A stretch of 64,000 nt of DNA, taken from NCBI GenBank assembly GCA_043817685.1, contig JBDRGQ010000006.1, forward strand, positions 1,879-65,878, given 5' to 3'. Of this stretch, positions 2,357-28,222 are shown one piece after another. Origin of the DNA: a bacterium (GTDB taxonomy: Bacteria; Patescibacteriota; Minisyncoccia; Minisyncoccales; RBG-13-42-11). The notes under the pieces are model-generated. The model was not told the DNA's origin. It searched no databases and saw only the letters and a program-made list of their open reading frames with translations. The translations under genes and the position numbers were made by a program. The stretch's first letter is position 1, and each line of letters begins with the position of its first letter.

Positions 2357-3684
2357 TACTTTTCTAGTTTTTCTCTTAAAACATTTACTAAATCATCCAC
2401 TTTCACTTTCTCTTGTTTCATAGTGTCTCTATCTCTAACTGTTACTTCGTTGTTTTCTAGGGTATTAAAATCAACAGTAATTGCAAAAACTGTTCCTATT
2501 TCATCCTGCCTGCGATATCTTCTTCCGATAGAAGCTATTGCGTCGTACTGGCAAATAAAATAAGGTTTCAAAAGAGAATAAACTTCTTTTGCTTTTTTAA
2601 CTAAATCTGGTTTGTTTTTGACTAAAGGTAAGACAGCAATCTTAATAGGGGCCAAAATTTTATTCAAAACCAACATTGTTTCTAGCTCTTTGGACGTTTC
2701 CGTCGTTTCAGTTCTTCCTCCCTTCACTTCTTTGAAAGCATCTATCAAGAAAGCTAAGAAAGATCTGTCTGCTCCTGCTGAAGTTTCTATTATATATGGG
2801 AAATACTTTTCTTTTGTTTCTTCGTCAAAATATTCCAAATTCTGACCGGAAAACTTAGAATGGTTTGATAAATCCCAATCTCCTCTATCATGTATTCCTT
2901 CTATTTCTTTCCAGCCAAAAGGAAACTTGTATTCTATATCCACCACTCTCTTGGCATAATGGGCCAAATCTTTCTTTGAAACTTCCTTAAATCTAAGATT
3001 CTTTTTATCTATTCCCAGTTTTATATACCAATCCATTCTCTGTTTTTTCCAATAATCAAAGAATTTATCAGCTTCTTTTGGTTTACAAAACCACTGAAGC
3101 TCCATCTGTTCAAATTCTCTAGTCCTGTAAGTAAAGTTCCCCGGAGTTATTTCATTCCTAAAAGCTTTTCCTACTTGGGCTATGCCAAAAGGAATTTTCT
3201 TTCTGGAAGAGTTTAAAACATTGAGAAAATTAACATATATCCCTTGGCAAGTTTCAGCTCTTAAATAACTGATAGAAGTTTTATCTTCTACGGGACCGAT
3301 ATTAGTTTTCATCATCAAGTTAAATTTTCTGGGGGCAGTAAGCTTTCCCTTACAATTAGGACAGTTTTCTGTTTCCAACAAGTCCTTTCTGAATCTGTGA
3401 TGGCATTTTTTGCACTCCACCAATTCATCCGCAAAACCGGCTGTTAAGTGTCCTGAAGCTTCCCAAATCTTAGGACTCATTAATATAGCTGCATCCAAGC
3501 CAACAATATCGTCTTGCAGCTGAATCATTTCTTTTCTCCAGGCATTCTTAATATTATTTTTCATTTCCACTCCCAAAGGACCGTAATCGTAACAAGAGCC
3601 GAATCCTCCGTATATTTCAGAAGAGAGAAATATAAATCCTCTCCTTTTGGCCAAAGATATGATTTTTTGCATTGTATTTTCCAT
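2356..3684 (-). CDS. glyQS: glycine--tRNA ligase (homodimeric class II)
   Basis: N-terminus KRRGFIFLSSEIYGGFGSCYDYGPLGVEMKNNIK is diagnostic of GlyQS-type GlyRS. Length is 442 aa. Confidence 0.95.
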   Translation of the reverse strand: MENTMQKIISLAKRRGFIFLSSEIYGGFGSCYDYGPLGVEMKNNIKNAWRKEMIQLQDDIVGLDAAILMSPKIWEASGHLTAGFADELVECKKCHHRFRKDLLETENCPNCKGKLTAPRKFNLMMKTNIGPVEDKTSISYLRAETCQGIYVNFLNVLNSSRKKIPFGIAQVGKAFRNEITPGNFTYRTREFEQMELQWFCKPKEADKFFDYWKKQRMDWYIKLGIDKKNLRFKEVSKKDLAHYAKRVVDIEYKFPFGWKEIEGIHDRGDWDLSNHSKFSGQNLEYFDEETKEKYFPYIIETSAGADRSFLAFLIDAFKEVKGGRTETTETSKELETMLVLNKILAPIKIAVLPLVKNKPDLVKKAKEVYSLLKPYFICQYDAIASIGRRYRRQDEIGTVFAITVDFNTLENNEVTVRDRDTMKQEKVKVDDLVNVLREKLEK

Positions 3685-11432: not shown

Positions 11433-11882
11433 ATGAAGCCCTTAGCTGATAACAAAAAAGCATATTTCGATTATGAAATTCTAGAAAAGTATGAAGCAGG
11501 AATTTCTTTGATTGGACAAGAAGTAAAGTCAATAAAACAAGGCCATATGAGTTTAAGCGGTTCTTATGTGGTGATAAGGGGGAATGAAGCTTTTTTACTA
11601 GGAGTTCATGTTCCTCCTTATCAGCCTAAAAATGCCCCCAAAGAATATGACCCCCAAAGGACAAGAAAACTTCTTTTAAGGAAGCAGGAAATAAACTATT
11701 TAATCGGAAAAACTAAAGAGAAAGGGTTGACTTTAGTGCCATTAAGGGTGTATACTCTGAAAGGTAATATCAAATTAGAATTTGGAGTGGCTAGAGGGAA
11801 AAAACAGAAAGATAAGAGAGAAACGATAAAGAAACGAGAAACGGAAAGAGATATGAAAAGAGAGTTAAACCTGAGGGGGTGA
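11433..11882 (+). CDS. smpB: SsrA-binding protein SmpB
   Basis: NKKAYFDYEILEKYEAGISLIGQEVKSIK is the conserved SmpB core. The ORF track starts at 11394. I prefer ATG 11433 (or 11424) because TAAAAT at 11420-11425 lies just upstream. The stop TGA is at 11880-11882. Confidence 0.9.
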   Translation: MKPLADNKKAYFDYEILEKYEAGISLIGQEVKSIKQGHMSLSGSYVVIRGNEAFLLGVHVPPYQPKNAPKEYDPQRTRKLLLRKQEINYLIGKTKEKGLTLVPLRVYTLKGNIKLEFGVARGKKQKDKRETIKKRETERDMKRELNLRG

Positions 11883-12217
11883 AAGGCTTCGACAGAAAAT
11901 CTAATTAAAATATGCAAGCCGAGTTATTAGATCTTGTAAAACTAATAAAGAAATAAGTGCCAACTTATTCAAACAACCAGCATTAGCAATAGCTTAATGC
12001 CATCTCGTCTGTTGATTCTCGCTAGGCAGAGTCGAGGTGTCATATTAGCGAGATAGATAGTTTTTTTGATTCGGGAAAACTATTAAAGATGGTTCTGGGT
12101 CAATGGTATAGATTTTTTGCCCGGTTTAAACTCTATATCTTAGATGAAACCGGTCTACGCTTGTAGAAATATTTTAAAGAAATTTTTTGGACAGGGGTTC
12201 AATTCTCCTCACCTCCA
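11875..12217 (+). ncRNA. ssrA: tmRNA (ssrA)
   Basis: 5' GGGGGUG (11875-11881) pairs with 3' CACCUCC (12210-12216) and includes a G3:U wobble, followed by discriminator A. T-arm is AGGGG-UUCAAUU-CUCCU. An in-frame tag ORF GCC AAC ... GCT TAA (11959-11997) encodes ANLFKQPALAIA. It lies directly after smpB. Confidence 0.9.
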
Positions 12218-12233
12218 CTAACAATATAAAAAA

Positions 12234-21170: not shown

Positions 21171-21246
21171 GGTGAGCGTAGTGTAGTGGCCCAGCACAAG
21201 AGTTTGTGGAACTCTTAGGGGGAGTTCGAATCTCCTCGCTCACCCA
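21171..21246 (+). tRNA. tRNA-His (anticodon GTG)
   Basis: Cloverleaf with anticodon stem AGAGT/ACTCT and loop TTGTGGA. The extra 5' G(-1) pairs with C73 (GGTGAGCG...CGCTCACC). T-arm is GGAGTTCGAATCTCC. Confidence 0.92.
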
Positions 21247-21362: not shown

Positions 21363-21410
21363 AAAAAGGCTTCTTCTGGCACTAATTAATTTGAAAGAAG
21401 CCTCTTTTTT
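21363..21410. terminator. bidirectional intrinsic terminator (tRNA-His unit / EndoQ gene)
   Basis: Stem AGGCTTCTTC (21367-21376) / GAAAGAAGCCT (21393-21403), flanked by an A-run (21363-21367) and a T-run (21405-21410). Confidence 0.65.
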
Positions 21411-22656
21411 AGAATAATGTTTTCTGGTTTGTAGAAGTTTTCTTTTCTCCCTCTGAAAAAACGCTTATTTTCCCGTAAACACCGTCGTACCCGGGAGATT
21501 TTACAACCTTACCTTCTCTAACCTTAATTATTCCTTCTGCTATTTCCGGACTGGTAATTGATTTTAAAACGCTTTCTTGGGATTCTAACAAAACTTCAAA
21601 TTCTGAACCAATACTGCTAATTAAATTATCGTATTCTTTTCCTACTTCTTTTGAAGCTGTCCCAACCCCTATGACATCTGCTATTATTTCATTCAAAGGC
21701 ACTAAACTTTTGAATGGAATACGATCTGGAGGGATAAAACCTTCCTCTCTATCAGCCAATTCTTCCACTCTGTTTAAAACTCCTATTGTCAAGGGTTTCC
21801 CGCAAACTGGACAAAGCCCTCCATATTTTTTAGTTTCTTTAGGGGACAATCTGACTTCACAATTCCTGTGTCCGTCAAAATGATACTTTCCTTCTTCCGG
21901 ATAAAATTCTATAGTGTATAGAAACTTTTTAGAATCTTTTGTTTTTAAAGCTTCTGTGATGGCTTGGTAGCTTAATTCTGTATTAAAAACATTTGCTTCC
22001 CTGCCTATTTTTTGAGGGGAGTGACTATCGCTGTTTGAAATAAGGGTTATTCTGTCCAAAAAAGATAATCTCCAATTCATGGCCGGATCGCTGGACAACC
22101 CGGTTTCCATAGCATAAATATCTTTAGAATATTCTTCAAAACATTCTTTTATAGAGTCAAACCCTGATTTAGACCCAAAGAGAGCAAACCAAGGGGTCCA
22201 AATATGGGCAGGAATAACCATGCAACTTGGGTCAGACTCAAGAACAATCTTGGCTAATTCTTTTGCGTCCAATCCCAAGATAGGCCTGCCGTCTGATTTT
22301 AAATTGCCAATCCAACCTAATTGAACATTTATTTTTTCTACTGCCTCAAAAGAAGGAGCAAAAACTATTATATGTATTTTTCTAACTTTATTATTCTTAG
22401 AATAAATGCAACTTATTTCAGCAGTTAAAAGGAAACGTGTTTCTTGATCGTCCTTTTTTAATTTAAACAATCCAGATTCCGCTGGTTCTAGCTTATCTTT
22501 TAAATTAGCTAACCATTCAGGATGAGTAAAATCTCCGGTTCCCATAACCTTTATTCCTTTTATTTTTGCCCATTTGTCCAAGTTTTCTAAGTCCATGTCT
22601 TTGGACGTGGCTCTGGAATATTTAGAATGTATATGAAAATCTGCTACAAACTTCAT
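21409..22656 (-). CDS. endonuclease Q (EndoQ) family protein with PHP-like N-domain and C-terminal zinc finger
   Basis: MKFVADFHIHSKYSRATS is the EndoQ/TIGR00375 signature N-terminus. A CxxC zinc motif follows (GLCPVCGKPLT). The ATG at 22656 overlaps the upstream stop in an ATGA arrangement, so the 15-codon extension in the ORF track is unlikely. Confidence 0.75.
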   Translation of the reverse strand: MKFVADFHIHSKYSRATSKDMDLENLDKWAKIKGIKVMGTGDFTHPEWLANLKDKLEPAESGLFKLKKDDQETRFLLTAEISCIYSKNNKVRKIHIIVFAPSFEAVEKINVQLGWIGNLKSDGRPILGLDAKELAKIVLESDPSCMVIPAHIWTPWFALFGSKSGFDSIKECFEEYSKDIYAMETGLSSDPAMNWRLSFLDRITLISNSDSHSPQKIGREANVFNTELSYQAITEALKTKDSKKFLYTIEFYPEEGKYHFDGHRNCEVRLSPKETKKYGGLCPVCGKPLTIGVLNRVEELADREEGFIPPDRIPFKSLVPLNEIIADVIGVGTASKEVGKEYDNLISSIGSEFEVLLESQESVLKSITSPEIAEGIIKVREGKVVKSPGYDGVYGKISVFSEGEKKTSTNQKTLF

Positions 22657-23795
22657 AAAATAAATTGAAGGGCTGCTCCCAAGATTAAGAATACCGCACA
22701 CAAGAAAAGTACTATTTTAGGAACGGTTATCGCATACTCCGGCTGATGATTTCCCAGCTCTTTTGCTTTTTTAAATAATAAAATAATTATTACACCCTCT
22801 ACGACACCGATTAGTGTCCCCAAAAACCCTATAACTTCAATAAATCCTCTCAGCCCTATTAAAAACAAGGCTATTGGCAAAAATGTTACTAGTGAATTGG
22901 CTAATAATTTTGGCATTTTCTGATCGTAAACCAAATTATTCTTCAGACAAAGGGCAATTATTAAAAAAGAATCTGCCAAGGTGATAAAAGCGGCTAAAGA
23001 ACCAATAAAAATTATCTCTGGACCCAAGAAAGGAATTAGTCCCTGAAAAACATCTACGGAAGTATCACTTCCGCTTATGCCCACAACAACAAAGGCGAAA
23101 AGAGCGTATAAAGAAATTATTATTGCAAAAGATAAAATAATAATTTTTTTGAGATTCTTTTTTTCTTCTGGCGTTTTTAAAACTGCTTCCGCTTCTGGAA
23201 TCGCCGCAAATCCAGCCAAAGAAAACAATATTACCCCATAGGGAAGTAAAATATTGGGAATTTCAACTAAAGAAAAATTATGAAGCTGTATTTTAGGAAA
23301 TCCTAAAATAAAGATAACGAAAATAATAATAAAAAAAACTACATTTGTAAAAATTTCTACCGGAGCTATTATCTTTACCCCTCTAAAAATAAAAGGGATT
23401 AATATCAAACCGAAGAATAAGCTGCAATAAAAAGGATCAACCGATATTTTAAAAGACAGCAGGATGCTTAAGAATTTTCCTCCCAAAATAATATAAGCCA
23501 ATAGAGCTCCTGTCAACCCTACAAAAACAGAAAAAGTAGTAAGTCTCCCATAATTTTTCCCTAAATATTTTCTGGCTAAGCCTGCCAATCTGCAATTTTC
23601 TTTCGTTCTTAAAAATATTTCTCCAAAAAATAAATTAAGAAGAAGCATTACCCCTCCCAAAACTAAAAAATAAAAAATAGCGAGGGCAGCTCCGCTTTTA
23701 GAAACAACATAAGGAATGCCAAAAATTCCCGCTCCTACTGTGCTTCCTATAAAAATAAATAAAGCGAAAACACTGTTTTTATTAAACCCTAACAT
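22653..23795 (-). CDS. amino acid permease (Trp/Tyr-permease-like family)
   Basis: 380 aa with about 11 TM segments. The N-terminal GSTVGAGIFGIPYVVSKSG motif is typical of amino-acid transporters. Confidence 0.55.
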   Translation of the reverse strand: MLGFNKNSVFALFIFIGSTVGAGIFGIPYVVSKSGAALAIFYFLVLGGVMLLLNLFFGEIFLRTKENCRLAGLARKYLGKNYGRLTTFSVFVGLTGALLAYIILGGKFLSILLSFKISVDPFYCSLFFGLILIPFIFRGVKIIAPVEIFTNVVFFIIIFVIFILGFPKIQLHNFSLVEIPNILLPYGVILFSLAGFAAIPEAEAVLKTPEEKKNLKKIIILSFAIIISLYALFAFVVVGISGSDTSVDVFQGLIPFLGPEIIFIGSLAAFITLADSFLIIALCLKNNLVYDQKMPKLLANSLVTFLPIALFLIGLRGFIEVIGFLGTLIGVVEGVIIILLFKKAKELGNHQPEYAITVPKIVLFLCAVFLILGAALQFIL

Positions 23796-23821
23796 TTTTC
23801 TAGTTCAGTATTTTAAATTAT

Positions 23822-24082
23822 TTACTCTAAATATACTTTGTATCCATCTCTAACCTTTTCTTTCACTTTCATTCCAACCTCGTCTCCTTTTTTGGCTTGT
23901 TCTATCTTCTTATGATCCACTTCCATGGAATCTACTTTTTGATCAAAGTCGGTGTTTTCCCCGCCTATTATCCTTATAGTCTCCCCGATTTTCAGCTTAT
24001 CAGACAGAGAAATAACAGCCACTCCGATATGATCAAAATAATGAATAATTTTTCCTATTTCTTTTAATTTTTTATCTGCCAT
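23822..24082 (-). CDS. translation elongation factor-like small beta-barrel protein (EF-Tu domain 2-like)
   Basis: The 86-aa sequence GKIIHYFDHIGVAVISLSDKLKIGETIRIIG...KKGDEVGMKV resembles stand-alone EF-Tu domain-II-like proteins. Confidence 0.55.
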   Translation of the reverse strand: MADKKLKEIGKIIHYFDHIGVAVISLSDKLKIGETIRIIGGENTDFDQKVDSMEVDHKKIEQAKKGDEVGMKVKEKVRDGYKVYLE

Positions 24083-24097
24083 ATTAAAAGCTTTGTT

Positions 24098-24658
24098 TTA
24101 AAGACGACCTTTTTCTTTTTTTATTAATTTTATTAATTGTTTAACCAATTCCTTAGGCTCTGTGGAAAAAACCATATTCATTTTCCCTCTGAAAGGACGC
24201 TTAACTATCTGTTTTATTTCATCTGCTATTCCGCCAGATCCAAGCATAATACCTATCGGTTTTTCATCTTCAAAAGCAATGGTAAATTCGTTCAAAGTTC
24301 CCATTCTTCCGCATATAATTATTACTCCGTCTGCCGCTCTGGTCATTAATAAGTTTCTACCAGCATATCCAAATCCAGTATAAATTATAACGTCAAAGGC
24401 ATCATGAGGAAGCCTGTATTTTTTTACATGAGCTATTTCTGTTGCCGCAGGAGAAAATCCTATAGATATTCCTTTAGCTGCTTTAACCCCAATAGCTGCA
24501 TAATGAGGTATGCCAGTAGTAGCTCCCGTAATCAAGATGCATCCCTGACGGACTATCTCTTTTCCAATTTCTTTAGCTAACTTTATTGCTGTCTTTGAAC
24601 AAACATGAGCTTCTGCCGCTCCGGCTACTGCTATTTTGAATTTATTTTTATATGCCAT
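24098..24658 (-). CDS. TIGR00725/LOG-like Rossmann-fold nucleotide-binding protein
   Basis: KIAVAGAAEA...ILITGATTGIPHYAAIG...GRMGTLNEF. I prefer the ATG at 24658 over the ORF-track start at 24676. Confidence 0.65.
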   Translation of the reverse strand: MAYKNKFKIAVAGAAEAHVCSKTAIKLAKEIGKEIVRQGCILITGATTGIPHYAAIGVKAAKGISIGFSPAATEIAHVKKYRLPHDAFDVIIYTGFGYAGRNLLMTRAADGVIIICGRMGTLNEFTIAFEDEKPIGIMLGSGGIADEIKQIVKRPFRGKMNMVFSTEPKELVKQLIKLIKKEKGRL

Positions 24659-24686
24659 ATATCTTAATTTTAACACATATTTCCAA

Positions 24687-24848
24687 CTAAAAAAGAGGCT
24701 TTTGGCCTCTGCTTTAGTGAGGAGGAAATAATTCCCAAAAAACTCGACTAAGTACCTAAGTCCAGTTGGACATTAACTAGGCGGCCGCTGTGGTCTCCTT
24801 TTTTAAAAATTATCTGTCCATTGGGTATAAAACCCGCACCTCCTCGCT
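24687..24848 (-). ncRNA. unidentified structured small RNA with its own promoter and intrinsic terminator
   Basis: Minus-strand promoter: TTGACA (24881-24876), 17 nt, TAAAAT (24858-24853). The 5' AGCGAGGAGG (24848-24839) pairs with CCUCCUCACU (24725-24716). Internal hairpins are present. The terminator stem is at 24694-24710 followed by a U-run (24693-24689). No ORF is present. Confidence 0.55.
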
Positions 24849-24852
24849 TAGT

Positions 24853-24881
24853 ATTTTAGCCAGAAAAAAATCTCCTGTCAA
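24853..24881 (-). promoter_or_regulatory. sigma70-type promoter of the candidate sRNA
   Basis: TTGACA, a 17-nt spacer, then TAAAAT on the minus strand. It begins 3 nt downstream of the methyltransferase stop codon (24884-24886), in the intergenic gap. Confidence 0.55.
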
Positions 24882-24883
24882 TC

Positions 24884-25579
24884 CTACAAAGAGTCTTCGG
24901 CAATGACTAAAATATTACTTTCCTTGCTCTTCAGCCGACCTACCATTTTCACATCCATAATTTTAAATCCAGCTTCCTTAATAAGCTTTATTAATTCTTT
25001 CTTTGAAAAATTATGAACATATCTTAATAATTTCTTTCCCCAAGGAATAAATGTATCTCCTTTATCAATCTTTTTGCCGCAAAATATTTTTAGAAATAAG
25101 AATCTAAAAAAAAGTTTAATGTTTTTGAAAATATTAAAATTCCATACACTTAGAATCAATATTCCTTCTGGCTTTAAAACCCTTCTGATTTCTTTTAAAA
25201 ACTTTAATCTTAACTCTTTTGAAGGAATATGGTGCAATACGGCTATGCTAAAAACCTTATCGAAAAAATCGGCAGGAAATGGTAAGTTTAAAGCATCCGC
25301 CACTTGGAATTTGAATTGAGGATATCTTTTTTTGGCTATTTCTATAAGTTTTTCTGAAAAATCAACTCCATAGTAATCTAAGGTTTTATCCTGGAATAGT
25401 TCATATAGTCTGCCGTTACCGCATCCTAAATCTAAAACTTTCTCGTTATCATTCACATATTTAGAAATAAATCCCATTTCCTTCCAAAACTTATTTCTGG
25501 TTCTGGAAAAGTCCTGGGAAATAAGATTGTAATTTTCCTTAGTTTCCTCTAATATTTTTTTAGCGTATTCTATATCCAT
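24884..25579 (-). CDS. class I SAM-dependent methyltransferase, Trm9/ALKBH8-MTase-like
   Basis: Shared motifs are FSRTRNKFW, VLDLGCGNGR (motif I), FSIAVLHHIPSKELRLKFLKEIRRVLKPEGILILSVW and DTFIPW. These match the characteristic Trm9 blocks (FSxTR..W, SIAVIHH...R..A..E..RVL.PGG...I.VWA, D.FVPW). True start is MDIEYAKK at 25579. The ORF-track extension to 25768 runs antisense through the Elp3 gene. Confidence 0.7.
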   Translation of the reverse strand: MDIEYAKKILEETKENYNLISQDFSRTRNKFWKEMGFISKYVNDNEKVLDLGCGNGRLYELFQDKTLDYYGVDFSEKLIEIAKKRYPQFKFQVADALNLPFPADFFDKVFSIAVLHHIPSKELRLKFLKEIRRVLKPEGILILSVWNFNIFKNIKLFFRFLFLKIFCGKKIDKGDTFIPWGKKLLRYVHNFSKKELIKLIKEAGFKIMDVKMVGRLKSKESNILVIAEDSL

Positions 25580-27124
25580 ATGAATATATCTGAAGCGATA
25601 ATTAAAGAATTGACTGAAAGGAGTTCTAAAAACCCAGAAGATTTGAATAAGGTAAAGAGATTTATATCTAAAAAATATAAAGCTCCTTGTCCTACAAATA
25701 TGTCTCTTCTTAAGAATTACCATGAATTGGTAAAAAAAAGAAAGATTAAAAAAAACTTCAGAATACAATTACTATTAAGAACCAGGCCAATCAGATCTTT
25801 ATCTGGTATTGTTAATATTTCTGTGTTAACCAAATCATATGATTGCCCTGGGAAATGCATCTTCTGTCCAACGGAAAAAAACTTACCTAAAAGCTATCTT
25901 TCTGGAGAACCGGCGGTAGAAAGAGCTAAAAAACTAAATTTTGATCCATATTTACAAGTCGAAAAAAGAATAGAGATGTTAAAGAACGAAGGGCACCCGA
26001 CCGACAAGATAGAATTAAGAACAATTGGAGGAACATGGAGCTATTATCCTAAAACATACAGAAATTGGTTTATAAAAAGATGTTTTGAAGCCTGCAACGA
26101 AAAGAAAAGCAAAAATTTAAAAGAAGCTCAGAAAGTAAATGAAACAGCAAAACACAGAATAGTGGGGTTCTCCATTGAAACCAGACCAGATTTTATAAAC
26201 AAAAAAGAGCTAAATCATTTAAGAGAGTTGGGGATAACAATGGTGGAATTGGGGATCCAATCAATATACGACGATGTTTTAGAACTAAACTTGAGAAGAC
26301 ACAATAGAAAAACAATAATTTCAGCGACTAAACTGTTAAAAGATTATGGATTTAAAATTCTTTATCAAATAATGCCAAACTTAGCTGGTTCTGTTTTGAA
26401 AAGGGACAAAGAAATGTTCAAAGAATTATTTGCCAATCAAGACTTTCAGCCAGATTTCCTGAAAATATATCCTTGCGCTCTAATTAAAGGAACTGCTTTG
26501 TATAAGTTATGGAAAAATAAAAAATACAGACCTTATGGGAAAAAACAATTAATATCTCTGGTAAAAGATATCAAGAAAATAATTCCTCCATACGTAAGGA
26601 TACAAAGGATAGCCAGAGATATTCCTGCTCATAGTATCGTTTCAGGCCCTGCCAGAATAACAAATCTGAGACAAATTCTGACAAACAGCATGAAAAAAGA
26701 AAATTGGAAGTGCGAATGTATAAGATGCAGAGAGGTAAGGGAAAAATATAATCCAAAAGAAAAACTTTATCTTTTTAGAAGTAACTATAAAGCCTCGAAG
26801 GGCAATGAAATCTTTTTAACTTTTGAGAATAAAGAAAAAGATAAATTATACAGTCTTTTGAGGCTAAGAATGACTGATAAAAATGAAGCTCTTATAAGGG
26901 AAGTGCATACATTTGGCCAACTCCAATCGATAGCTTTTAAAAAAGAAAATTCCCCTCAACACAAAGGATTAGGTAAAAAATTGATAAAAGAAGCTGAAAA
27001 AATAGCCAAGAAAGAATATAAGGCAAGAAAAATAACCGTTATCTCTGGAGTGGGAGTAAGAGGATATTATAAAAAACTAGGATATAGATTAAAAGATACC
27101 TATATGGTAAAAAATCTATCCTAA
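25580..27124 (+). CDS. elp3: Elp3-family radical SAM / GNAT enzyme (tRNA U34 cm5-type modification)
   Basis: RPIRSLSGIVNISVLTKSYDCPGKCIFCP cysteine cluster, SYLSGEPAVERAKKLNFDPYLQV, DKIELRTIGGTW, and a C-terminal GNAT region with HKGLGKKLIKEAE. Length is 514 aa. Confidence 0.85.
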   Translation: MNISEAIIKELTERSSKNPEDLNKVKRFISKKYKAPCPTNMSLLKNYHELVKKRKIKKNFRIQLLLRTRPIRSLSGIVNISVLTKSYDCPGKCIFCPTEKNLPKSYLSGEPAVERAKKLNFDPYLQVEKRIEMLKNEGHPTDKIELRTIGGTWSYYPKTYRNWFIKRCFEACNEKKSKNLKEAQKVNETAKHRIVGFSIETRPDFINKKELNHLRELGITMVELGIQSIYDDVLELNLRRHNRKTIISATKLLKDYGFKILYQIMPNLAGSVLKRDKEMFKELFANQDFQPDFLKIYPCALIKGTALYKLWKNKKYRPYGKKQLISLVKDIKKIIPPYVRIQRIARDIPAHSIVSGPARITNLRQILTNSMKKENWKCECIRCREVREKYNPKEKLYLFRSNYKASKGNEIFLTFENKEKDKLYSLLRLRMTDKNEALIREVHTFGQLQSIAFKKENSPQHKGLGKKLIKEAEKIAKKEYKARKITVISGVGVRGYYKKLGYRLKDTYMVKNLS

Positions 27125-28222
27125 TTTAGCTTTCAACCTCTGCCTAGCTAAAACCTTCTCTTTGTTGGTAGCTTTGCTCATCTCAATTCCTTTTTCTAGA
27201 ATATCTATAGTTTTATCCAACTCTTCTTGTTTCGGGAAGAAAGGAGTTCCATCTTTTCCTCCATGGGCGAATGAATATCTAGCCGGATCATTATAAGAAG
27301 GTTTAGCTCCATAGATTAATTCTGAAACCAGAGACAATGCTCTTATTGTTCTGGGGCCTATCCTTTTTAAAGACACTAGCTGTTCAAAGTTTTGGGGATT
27401 TTGGTCTTTGGCAAATAAAATTGTTTTTTCTAATCTTTTTAAATTAAATTTCTCATTCACTACAGGATGCCAATAAAACTCTCTATTATGCAACTTCATT
27501 TCAGTAAGATTTTTTGATTTCTTCGTTTGAATTAAACCAATATCTCTTATGAACTTGTTTGGTTCTTCCTTAACCAATTTTGTAGATATATCTCTATTTT
27601 CTCCACTAACTTTATCTGTTAAGTTCAAGGGTTTAACTTTTAACCCAGAAATAATACCAGCATGTGGTTCTTCTACAAAATTCTTTACTCCAGAAGATAG
27701 CCAGTGATAACGACGGGCAGTCTGGTTATTGGTATTCATCCCTTGTTGGATAACTGCCCATTCTCCTGATTTTGTAAATAGAAAATTGTGCTGGTATATT
27801 TGGTAATTATCTTGGATCAGGGAAGAGTCTGTTTTGGCAGCCATTTTGGAGGCATAGATAAGTTGTGGAGCAAAAGAAAAACCCCGGGAAATGCCATAAG
27901 CTTCTATTTCTTTTGGAGTATTTCTAGAAACTCTTTTCCCGCCACAAACATACACGCCCAAATGATCTTGAATTTCAAAAATACCTTCTTTCAAAGCTCC
28001 GAGGGTAACCACGGTTAAACCAGAACTATTCCAATCAAATCCTAAAACACATCCCAAACTTTGGAACCAAATAGGATCAGAAAGCCTTTTTAAGAACTCT
28101 TCTGGCCCATATTCTTCTACAATAGCCATAGCAATGCCTCTGCCCAATCTCTTCATCCTTTCAAATAGCCAGCTAGGACAACGGCCATAATCTAATGGTA
28201 CTGTTGCTACACCTGTTTTCAT
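27116..28222 (-). CDS. DUF763 domain-containing protein
   Basis: N-terminus MKTGVATVPLDYGRCPSWLFERMKRLG...LSDPIWFQSLGCVLGFDWNSSGLT matches my recollection of the DUF763 family pattern. It overlaps the 3' end of elp3 convergently by 9 nt. Confidence 0.6.
   Translation of the reverse strand: MKTGVATVPLDYGRCPSWLFERMKRLGRGIAMAIVEEYGPEEFLKRLSDPIWFQSLGCVLGFDWNSSGLTVVTLGALKEGIFEIQDHLGVYVCGGKRVSRNTPKEIEAYGISRGFSFAPQLIYASKMAAKTDSSLIQDNYQIYQHNFLFTKSGEWAVIQQGMNTNNQTARRYHWLSSGVKNFVEEPHAGIISGLKVKPLNLTDKVSGENRDISTKLVKEEPNKFIRDIGLIQTKKSKNLTEMKLHNREFYWHPVVNEKFNLKRLEKTILFAKDQNPQNFEQLVSLKRIGPRTIRALSLVSELIYGAKPSYNDPARYSFAHGGKDGTPFFPKQEELDKTIDILEKGIEMSKATNKEKVLARQRLKAKLG

Follow-up and report, generated by a model that had tools for sequence, protein, structure and literature searches.

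A 64-kb stretch of contig JBDRGQ010000006.1 (GenBank assembly GCA_043817685.1, positions 1,879 to 65,878; hereafter the window, G+C content of 33%) from a bacterium of the Candidate Phyla Radiation (CPR) was analyzed with regard to the interval between a class-11 methyltransferase gene and a gene for a SLOG cluster-4 protein (PF18306). The original prediction had placed in this interval an orphan small RNA (sRNA) gene having its own promoter, a terminal closing helix and an intrinsic terminator. This proposal was supported by the present analysis, as 32 homologues were found to keep the promoter, the fold and the terminator. The interval probably harbors a structured non-coding RNA of approximately 160 nt with a gene of its own, representing a family outside Rfam that has been seen so far only in Parcubacteria/Paceibacteria within the CPR. 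The features of the locus are listed in Table 1, where the coordinates of the RNA parts refer to the minus strand of the window.

Table 1. Features of the RNA gene, the start of the downstream gene and the neighboring genes.
Feature	Coordinates	Strand	Remarks
Sigma-70-type promoter	TTGACA 24881-24876; TAAAAT 24858-24853	(-)	17-nt spacer; score 11/12
P1, 5' strand GAGGAGG	24845-24839	(-)	Pairs with CCUCCUC, 24725-24719
P2 hairpin	24835-24823	(-)	GGGU, loop UUUAU, ACCC; 4 bp
GGACA in the P2/P3 junction	24819-24815	(-)	Candidate pairing with UGUCC of the P4 loop, 24772-24768
P3, 5' strand AUAAUUUUUAAAAAA	24813-24799	(-)	Pairs with 24742-24728
3x3 purine internal loop	GGA 24798-24796 opposite GAG 24745-24743	(-)	Consensus R-A-K; invariant G.A
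P3b	GAC 24795-24793 with GUC 24748-24746	(-)	3 bp; GAY/RUC in homologues
Self-complementary 8-mer GCGGCCGC	24788-24781	(-)	Immediately 5' of P4
P4 hairpin	CUAG 24780-24777; CUGG 24765-24762	(-)	4 bp; 11-nt loop
Variable segment	24761-24749	(-)	Follows P4 and precedes the 3' strand of P3b; possible small hairpin
Intrinsic terminator	24718-24686	(-)	G+C stem 24710-24694, then T6
Extended -10 box of the SLOG gene TGTTAAAAT and ATG	24675-24667; ATG 24658-24656	(-)	Outside the RNA
Elp3-like radical-SAM/GNAT gene		Opposite to RNA	First in the local gene order
Class-11 methyltransferase gene	25579-24884	(-)	Upstream of the RNA
SLOG cluster-4 protein gene (PF18306)	24658-24098	(-)	Directly after the RNA
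Small EF-Tu-domain-2-like protein gene			First after the SLOG gene
Trp/Tyr-type permease gene			Second after the SLOG gene
PHP/MJ0043-like protein gene			Third after the SLOG gene

The homologues were collected from contigs encoding relatives of the SLOG protein and by two DNA-pattern scans; their loci are designated below by L numbers. The scan of the species representatives in GTDB gave eight matches, six of them in CPR genomes, and that of the Joint Genome Institute (JGI) metagenomes gave 36 matches, approximately 25 of which were real. In total, 32 distinct homologues of the RNA were obtained, all from Parcubacteria/Paceibacteria genomes and from metagenomes, and the relatives of the SLOG protein, which was 100% identical to a protein from a metagenome-assembled bacterium in NCBI, carried the labels Nealsonbacteria, Pacebacteria and Tagabacteria, which belong to the same part of the CPR. 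Pattern matches in high-G+C sequences were discarded as chance, as the covariance model did not recover them. A phage origin of the RNA was also rejected; the seven pattern matches in IMG/VR were all due to chance and none was recovered by the covariance model. Each locus, as well as the window, contained one copy of the RNA, and no second copy was found. The mean column identity of the RNA was 78%, when compared to identities of the SLOG protein that went down to 53%. The better conservation of the RNA than of the neighboring protein, together with its perfectly conserved promoter, suggested that the RNA is likely to be abundant and needed by the cells.

The promoter assigned to the RNA in the original prediction was the best promoter-like site in the region 23500-26000. 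A perfect TTGACA box was present in all 32 homologues, and the spacer to a TAnnnT box was 16-17 nt in 31 of them and 15 nt in the remaining one. The distance from the end of the -10 box to P1 was 6-8 nt in those 31 homologues, and transcription would start at about 24848-24846, 1-3 nt ahead of P1. The predicted transcript of 164 nt, in which a structured core of approximately 135 nt (24848-24712) follows the promoter, folded at -51.5 kcal/mol (z = -3.3), and none of 200 shuffled sequences was equally stable. The strong terminator described earlier was also confirmed, and its stem turned out to be longer, as ACUAAAG (24718-24712) pairs with the U-run plus the subsequent AGU (24693-24686). The extended stem folded in most homologues with covariation of the outer pairs (ACU..AGU, AUU..AAU and AUC..GAU), and the pairing with the U-run and the next three bases explained the conserved 3' tail CAYUAAAR. 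The G-rich arm of the terminator changed its side between homologues. The covariation of the extension reaches three bases past the U-run, implying that transcripts may end later than usual for intrinsic terminators, or that the extension serves otherwise. In L014, L035, L045 (approximately 70 nt from the RNA terminator to the SLOG gene), L049, L056 and L018, the RNA was separated from the SLOG promoter by an extra insert, which contained a second terminator-like hairpin whose CGGGG could pair with CCCCG of the first terminator.

The lack of a plausible open reading frame (ORF) also held, since no ATG-started ORF of at least 20 aa was present at the RNA on either strand. The ORFs at this locus were started by TTG or GTG only and encoded 22-38 aa, and those on the RNA strand were only TTG-started ones of 22 and 23 aa. 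The idea that the RNA is a mere 3' untranslated region of the methyltransferase mRNA was rejected, because a tRNA gene and the conserved promoter intervene in relatives; in most of them a tRNA-Arg(CCG) gene is located between the methyltransferase gene and the RNA, with the perfect -35 box after the tRNA.

The search of the whole window with Rfam 15 (4227 models) at gathering score gave no match at the RNA, agreeing with the orphan status claimed for it. Lowering the threshold to E<=10 for the region 24600-24950 yielded two chance-level matches only, neither of which lay over the structured core, and ten homologue loci searched at E<=5 gave no match at the RNA either. Rfam scored the tmRNA and the tRNAs of these contigs normally. 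ARAGORN called just the tmRNA (11875-12218) and tRNA-His (21172-21245) in the window, not the RNA, and no description of this RNA was found in the literature on structured RNAs or motifs of CPR/Parcubacteria.

The fold was evaluated with two alignments, which were A4, a MAFFT alignment of 28 sequences made independently of the model, and A5, a model-based alignment of 30 sequences. In A5, 99.1% of the cells were paired and 20 of the 42 pairs changed on both sides, values that were reached by none of 500 shuffles. The corresponding values in A4 were 95.2% and 18 pairs. When the partners were slid by one column, pairing dropped to approximately 50%. Conservation and covariation, on which the original prediction had made its claim depend, were thus both present and strong. 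The alignments showed the predicted core to consist of three arms at a junction, P1, P2 and the long P3, the last of which is capped by a conserved linker, P4 and the variable segment.

The seven pairs of P1 were formed in 100% of the 30 sequences, with the fifth pair being G-C in 22 and A-U in eight. The closing helix had been drawn between AGCGAGGAGG (24848-24839) and CCUCCUCACU (24725-24716) with 113 nt between them; its position and the inner 7 bp, which are conserved and covarying, were retained, while the outer pairs were not. All of the four pairs in P2 changed on both sides, for example GGGU/ACCC, GAGC/GCUC, GAGA/UCUC (L057) and CAGA/UCUG. The A/U-rich P3 of 15 bp was paired in 97.8%, with eight pairs showing changes on both sides. 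A second long-range helix that had been considered possible, AUACCCAA with UUGGGAAU, was discarded, because each half forms covarying pairs with a different partner, ACCC with GGGU in P2 and UUGGGAAUUAU with AUAAUUUUUAA in P3. Beyond P3, the sequence AAGGAGA, comprising the preceding AA, the GGA side of the internal loop and the start of P3b, was invariant, and the third pair of P3b was C-G in 13, U-A in 12 and U-G in five sequences of A5. The outer pairs of the hairpin GACUUAG-GUA-CUUAGUC in the original prediction lost against P3b, as its GUC pairs with GAC of P3b; the third pair of the hairpin was unpaired in ten of 28 sequences, compared with one of 28 for P3b. P4 was paired in 100%, all of its four pairs changed on both sides, and the loop motif AUGUCCA was nearly invariant. 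The variable segment differed in both length and sequence among homologues, and its inner pairs held in 56% of the cells. A divergent subtype in L060 (2230-2420) and L070 (1290-1470) had no P2 and a shorter P3, and was otherwise of the same architecture. The covariance model recovered these two members, at 26.8 and 20.6 bits, only after its filters had been switched off, indicating that the family is wider than the pattern scans show.

The complementarity of UGGACA and UGUCCA, regarded earlier as an internal hairpin, was real, but the pairing crosses P3 and would thus be a pseudoknot rather than a hairpin. As GGACA and UGUCC were both invariant in the 30 well-aligned sequences of A5, these members were uninformative about the pairing. 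The two divergent members, aligned by eye, had GGACAA against the loop UUGUUC with one G.U pair (L070), and GGAU(U)AC against the loop GUAUCC with a change on both sides (L060). The two strands were therefore complementary in three versions, giving modest support for a pseudoknot in which UGUCC of the P4 loop would pair with GGACA of the junction.

The palindrome noticed in the original prediction was confirmed at the 5' side of P4. A self-complementary 8-mer occupied the same position in 32 of 32 homologues in five versions, namely GCAGCUGC in 25, GCGGCCGC in four (the clade of the window), GCAAUUGC in L071, GCGUACGC in L070 and GUAUGUAC in L060. The version GUAUGUAC is self-complementary through two G.U pairs and the other four are perfect Watson-Crick palindromes, which differ from each other at positions 3/6 and 4/5, on both sides each time. 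GCGGCCGC occurred once in the 64 kb, where 0.01 occurrences were expected by chance. Self-folding is not possible for a palindrome of 8 nt, so that it is most simply read as a pairing of one molecule with another. For the 8-mer duplexes, energies from -5.4 to -17.5 kcal/mol were predicted. The cofold of two copies used the 8-mer duplex and reached -113.9 kcal/mol versus 2 x -48.5 kcal/mol, a gain that was halved once the palindrome was broken and that is partly a domain-swap artefact of the method. It is conceivable, although we put it forward tentatively, that the RNA represents a previously undescribed, CPR-specific class of symmetric RNA-RNA homodimers with a core of approximately 135 nt, kept beside tRNA-Arg and the SLOG operon. 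In the geometry that we roughly envisage, the two P4 hairpins with the 8-bp duplex between them would make up a central helix of approximately 16-17 bp, and each P3, with approximately 21 stacked layers, would run alongside it and bring the P4 loop to the GGACA junction. If the RNA dimerizes in this manner, the change of GCGGCCGC to GCGGAAGC should yield a monomer.

A short palindrome that is kept palindromic is also a property of the dimerization initiation site of human immunodeficiency virus type 1, in which a palindrome of 6 nt occupies a hairpin loop of the viral genome and has variants that stay palindromic, implying pairing of two copies; in the present small bacterial RNA, the palindrome is 8 nt long and part of a junction strand. 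Natural RNA homodimers formed through palindromic pairing have been documented for HYER1/5, and the pseudoknots of ARRPOF RNA form within or between protomers (PMC12990946). The present RNA resembles the HYER1/5 group IIC ribozymes, ARRPOF and OLE (PMC12990946) in having a self-complementary stretch in an exposed linker and pseudoknots that organize the fold, and GGACA/UGUCC may, as in ARRPOF, form within or between protomers. In contrast, those RNAs are several times larger, occur in other phyla and have no similarity to it in sequence or covariance model, and their dimers were seen by cryogenic electron microscopy, whereas the dimer proposed here is a prediction from five co-varying palindromes.

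The relation of the RNA to the SLOG gene bears on its mode of action. In 32 of 32 loci, the RNA closely preceded the SLOG gene and shared its strand, with 0-90 nt from the terminator U-run to the ATG, and this position was kept also in L013, L032, L036 and L057, where the upstream neighbors differ. The RNA was missing in L059 (tRNA-Arg, 88 nt, SLOG) and L068 (tRNA-Arg, DUF7411 gene, SLOG), and the retention of tRNA-Arg and SLOG without the RNA weakened the notion of an obligatory partnership between the RNA and SLOG. In most homologues, a TGnTAnAAT sequence was located after the terminator and 6-10 nt ahead of the SLOG ATG, and the SLOG gene is probably leaderless. A motif resembling the Shine-Dalgarno (SD) sequence preceded just five of the 53 genes in the window, and a -10 box, often TGnTAnAAT, was present 4-12 nt before the ATG in 12 of the 53. 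Leaderless mRNAs from extended -10 promoters thus seem to be the norm for the first genes of this genome, and other gene starts of this type in the window included those at 28222, 39563, 56284 and 61048. As the SLOG gene is served by a promoter of its own that follows the terminator, the RNA is a separate unit.

The constant association with SLOG would also be expected if the RNA acted in cis as a regulatory leader (riboswitch or protein-binding element) of the operon for the SLOG protein, the EF-Tu-domain-2 protein and the permease, with the core sensing a ligand and setting the read-through of the terminator. The layout is indeed that of transcription-terminating riboswitches and orphan candidates of this kind, which share with the RNA a compact multi-helix junction, a pseudoknot, invariant junction nucleotides (approximately 42 nucleotides are invariant here), a terminator that follows P1 at once and a fixed position relative to a gene family, and this position was held despite differing upstream neighbors. 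The SLOG protein resembles carriers of small molecules or cofactors, and read-through transcripts would be translatable, as most genes of the genome are translated without an SD sequence. Such a leader is nevertheless unlikely. The conserved extended -10 box of the SLOG gene itself, which follows the terminator and precedes the ATG at a leaderless distance, makes a riboswitch less probable, and inspection of approximately 20 homologues by eye found no consistent antiterminator pairing of the 3' part of the core with the terminator arms, which form a long and stable A-tract/U-tract stem. The perfect -35 box belonging to the RNA in every homologue, the close SLOG orthologues of L059 and L068 lacking the RNA, and the conserved palindrome, which is unusual for an aptamer, also argued against it.

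A promoter and a terminator of its own, conserved single-stranded segments and an A/U-rich 3' stem-loop as in many sRNAs would fit a monomeric base-pairing sRNA, for which the unpaired palindrome linker and the P4 loop would be the seeds for mRNAs, and the palindrome would be incidental or a protein site at the DNA level. However, three separate double changes preserved the self-complementarity of the 8-mer, which neither a seed nor an operator would need, approximately 90% of the core was in covarying helices, unusual for antisense sRNAs, and the palindrome of the window had no second copy in the 64 kb as a target; we consider this explanation rather improbable. A fold that is compact and pseudoknotted, with numerous invariant nucleotides at the junction, might also suggest a small ribozyme or another catalytic RNA, and some dimeric ribozymes, such as HYER1/5 (PMC12990946), do pair via palindromes. 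Against this, no ribozyme family of Rfam matched, the single-copy RNA lay in no mobile-element or repeat context and no candidate cleavage site could be named, leaving catalysis with very little probability. The least probable of these explanations is a highly divergent housekeeping RNA, such as 6S RNA, signal recognition particle (SRP)/4.5S RNA, an RNase P fragment or a tRNA-like RNA, that covariance models missed in CPR, where RNAs are often atypical. The RNA does adjoin a tRNA gene, and shares with 6S RNA (RF00013) and bacterial SRP RNA (RF00169) the layout of a separate 100-200-nt gene having a strong own promoter, a terminator and a closing helix of the 5' and 3' ends. Its three-way junction with a pseudoknot is, on the other hand, neither the 6S rod, as the central bubble is absent and RF00013 and related models gave no match, nor the SRP hairpin, as the consensus contains no domain IV hairpin bearing the GNAR tetraloop and the conserved symmetric and asymmetric loops, and neither RF00169 nor RF01854 matched. 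In 11 homologues altogether, no match to the 4227 Rfam models was obtained at E<=10 or E<=5, ARAGORN was negative at the RNA, and its loss in some related lineages is unexpected for an essential RNA.

We accordingly favor an independent trans-acting RNA, with a role as an antisense regulator or mRNA leader being less likely. In the mechanism we propose, the conserved promoter would start transcription just before P1 and the long terminator stem would end the transcript, the pseudoknot would lock the fold, and the 8-mers of two molecules would pair to give a symmetric homodimer as the working form. The RNA would act in trans, most likely as a scaffold or as a particle binding a protein or ligand. 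Several points weigh against this proposal. The 5' and 3' ends of the RNA were predicted from the promoter and terminator, the sequences of A5 had been fitted to the model structure, and the narrow clade that supplied the homologues makes the shuffle controls overstate independence. The support for the pseudoknot comes from the two divergent sequences aligned by eye, and an intramolecular pseudoknot is sterically awkward, as the P4 loop would have to reach back over approximately 21 stacked layers of P3, which it could hardly do unless the linker were held rigid. Dimerization was predicted from a sequence pattern and thermodynamic calculation, including the cofold gain with its artefact, and the fixed position upstream of SLOG in all loci has no explanation under a purely trans-acting RNA.

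The surroundings of the RNA showed further regularities. The divergent pair of the Elp3-like radical-SAM/GNAT gene and the class-11 (Trm9-like) methyltransferase gene (24884-27124 in the window) was conserved across the clade (L001-L071), and the pair, followed by tRNA-Arg(CCG) in most relatives, resembles a tRNA-modification module; the clade of the window itself has no tRNA-Arg after the methyltransferase gene. The mechanically called ORF at 24884-25768 on the minus strand (294 aa, started by TTG) overlaps the start of the Elp3 gene, and the true start of the methyltransferase is 25579 according to the gene calls in homologues (231 aa). L057/L058 contained two SLOG cluster-4 paralogues (933-1493 and 2501-3046) with an alpha/beta hydrolase gene between them, and the RNA preceded the second paralogue only. 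The cluster at 21409-28222 of the window encoded DUF763, Elp3, SLOG TIGR00725, the small EF-Tu-domain-2 protein and the MJ0043-type PHP protein, Pfam families that we take to be named for or associated with archaea, though the genome is bacterial. Matches in PDB for two of the proteins downstream of the RNA indicated a fold like that of molybdenum cofactor (Moco) carriers and a weak similarity to an eIF5B domain, and neither had a link to RNA. Elsewhere in the window, a tmRNA gene was located at 11875-12220 on the plus strand (160 bits with Rfam; tag peptide ANLFKQPALAIA) and tRNA-His(GTG) at 21172-21245 on the plus strand.

To our knowledge, CPR/Patescibacteria have very small genomes in which few non-coding RNAs are known beyond the universal ones, and only a handful of natural RNA homodimers, mostly of much larger RNAs, are known. 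The RNA described here is an addition to the orphan structured RNAs of bacteria. If it were a riboswitch instead, it would be a pointer to what the SLOG cluster-4 (TIGR00725) proteins, which are widespread, bind and do. As an independent RNA, it has a fold small enough for direct structural work, and its co-varying palindrome allows a natural RNA homodimer to be tested for clearly and cheaply. If the dimer were confirmed, the RNA would be among the smallest natural non-viral RNAs with a quaternary structure maintained by evolution.

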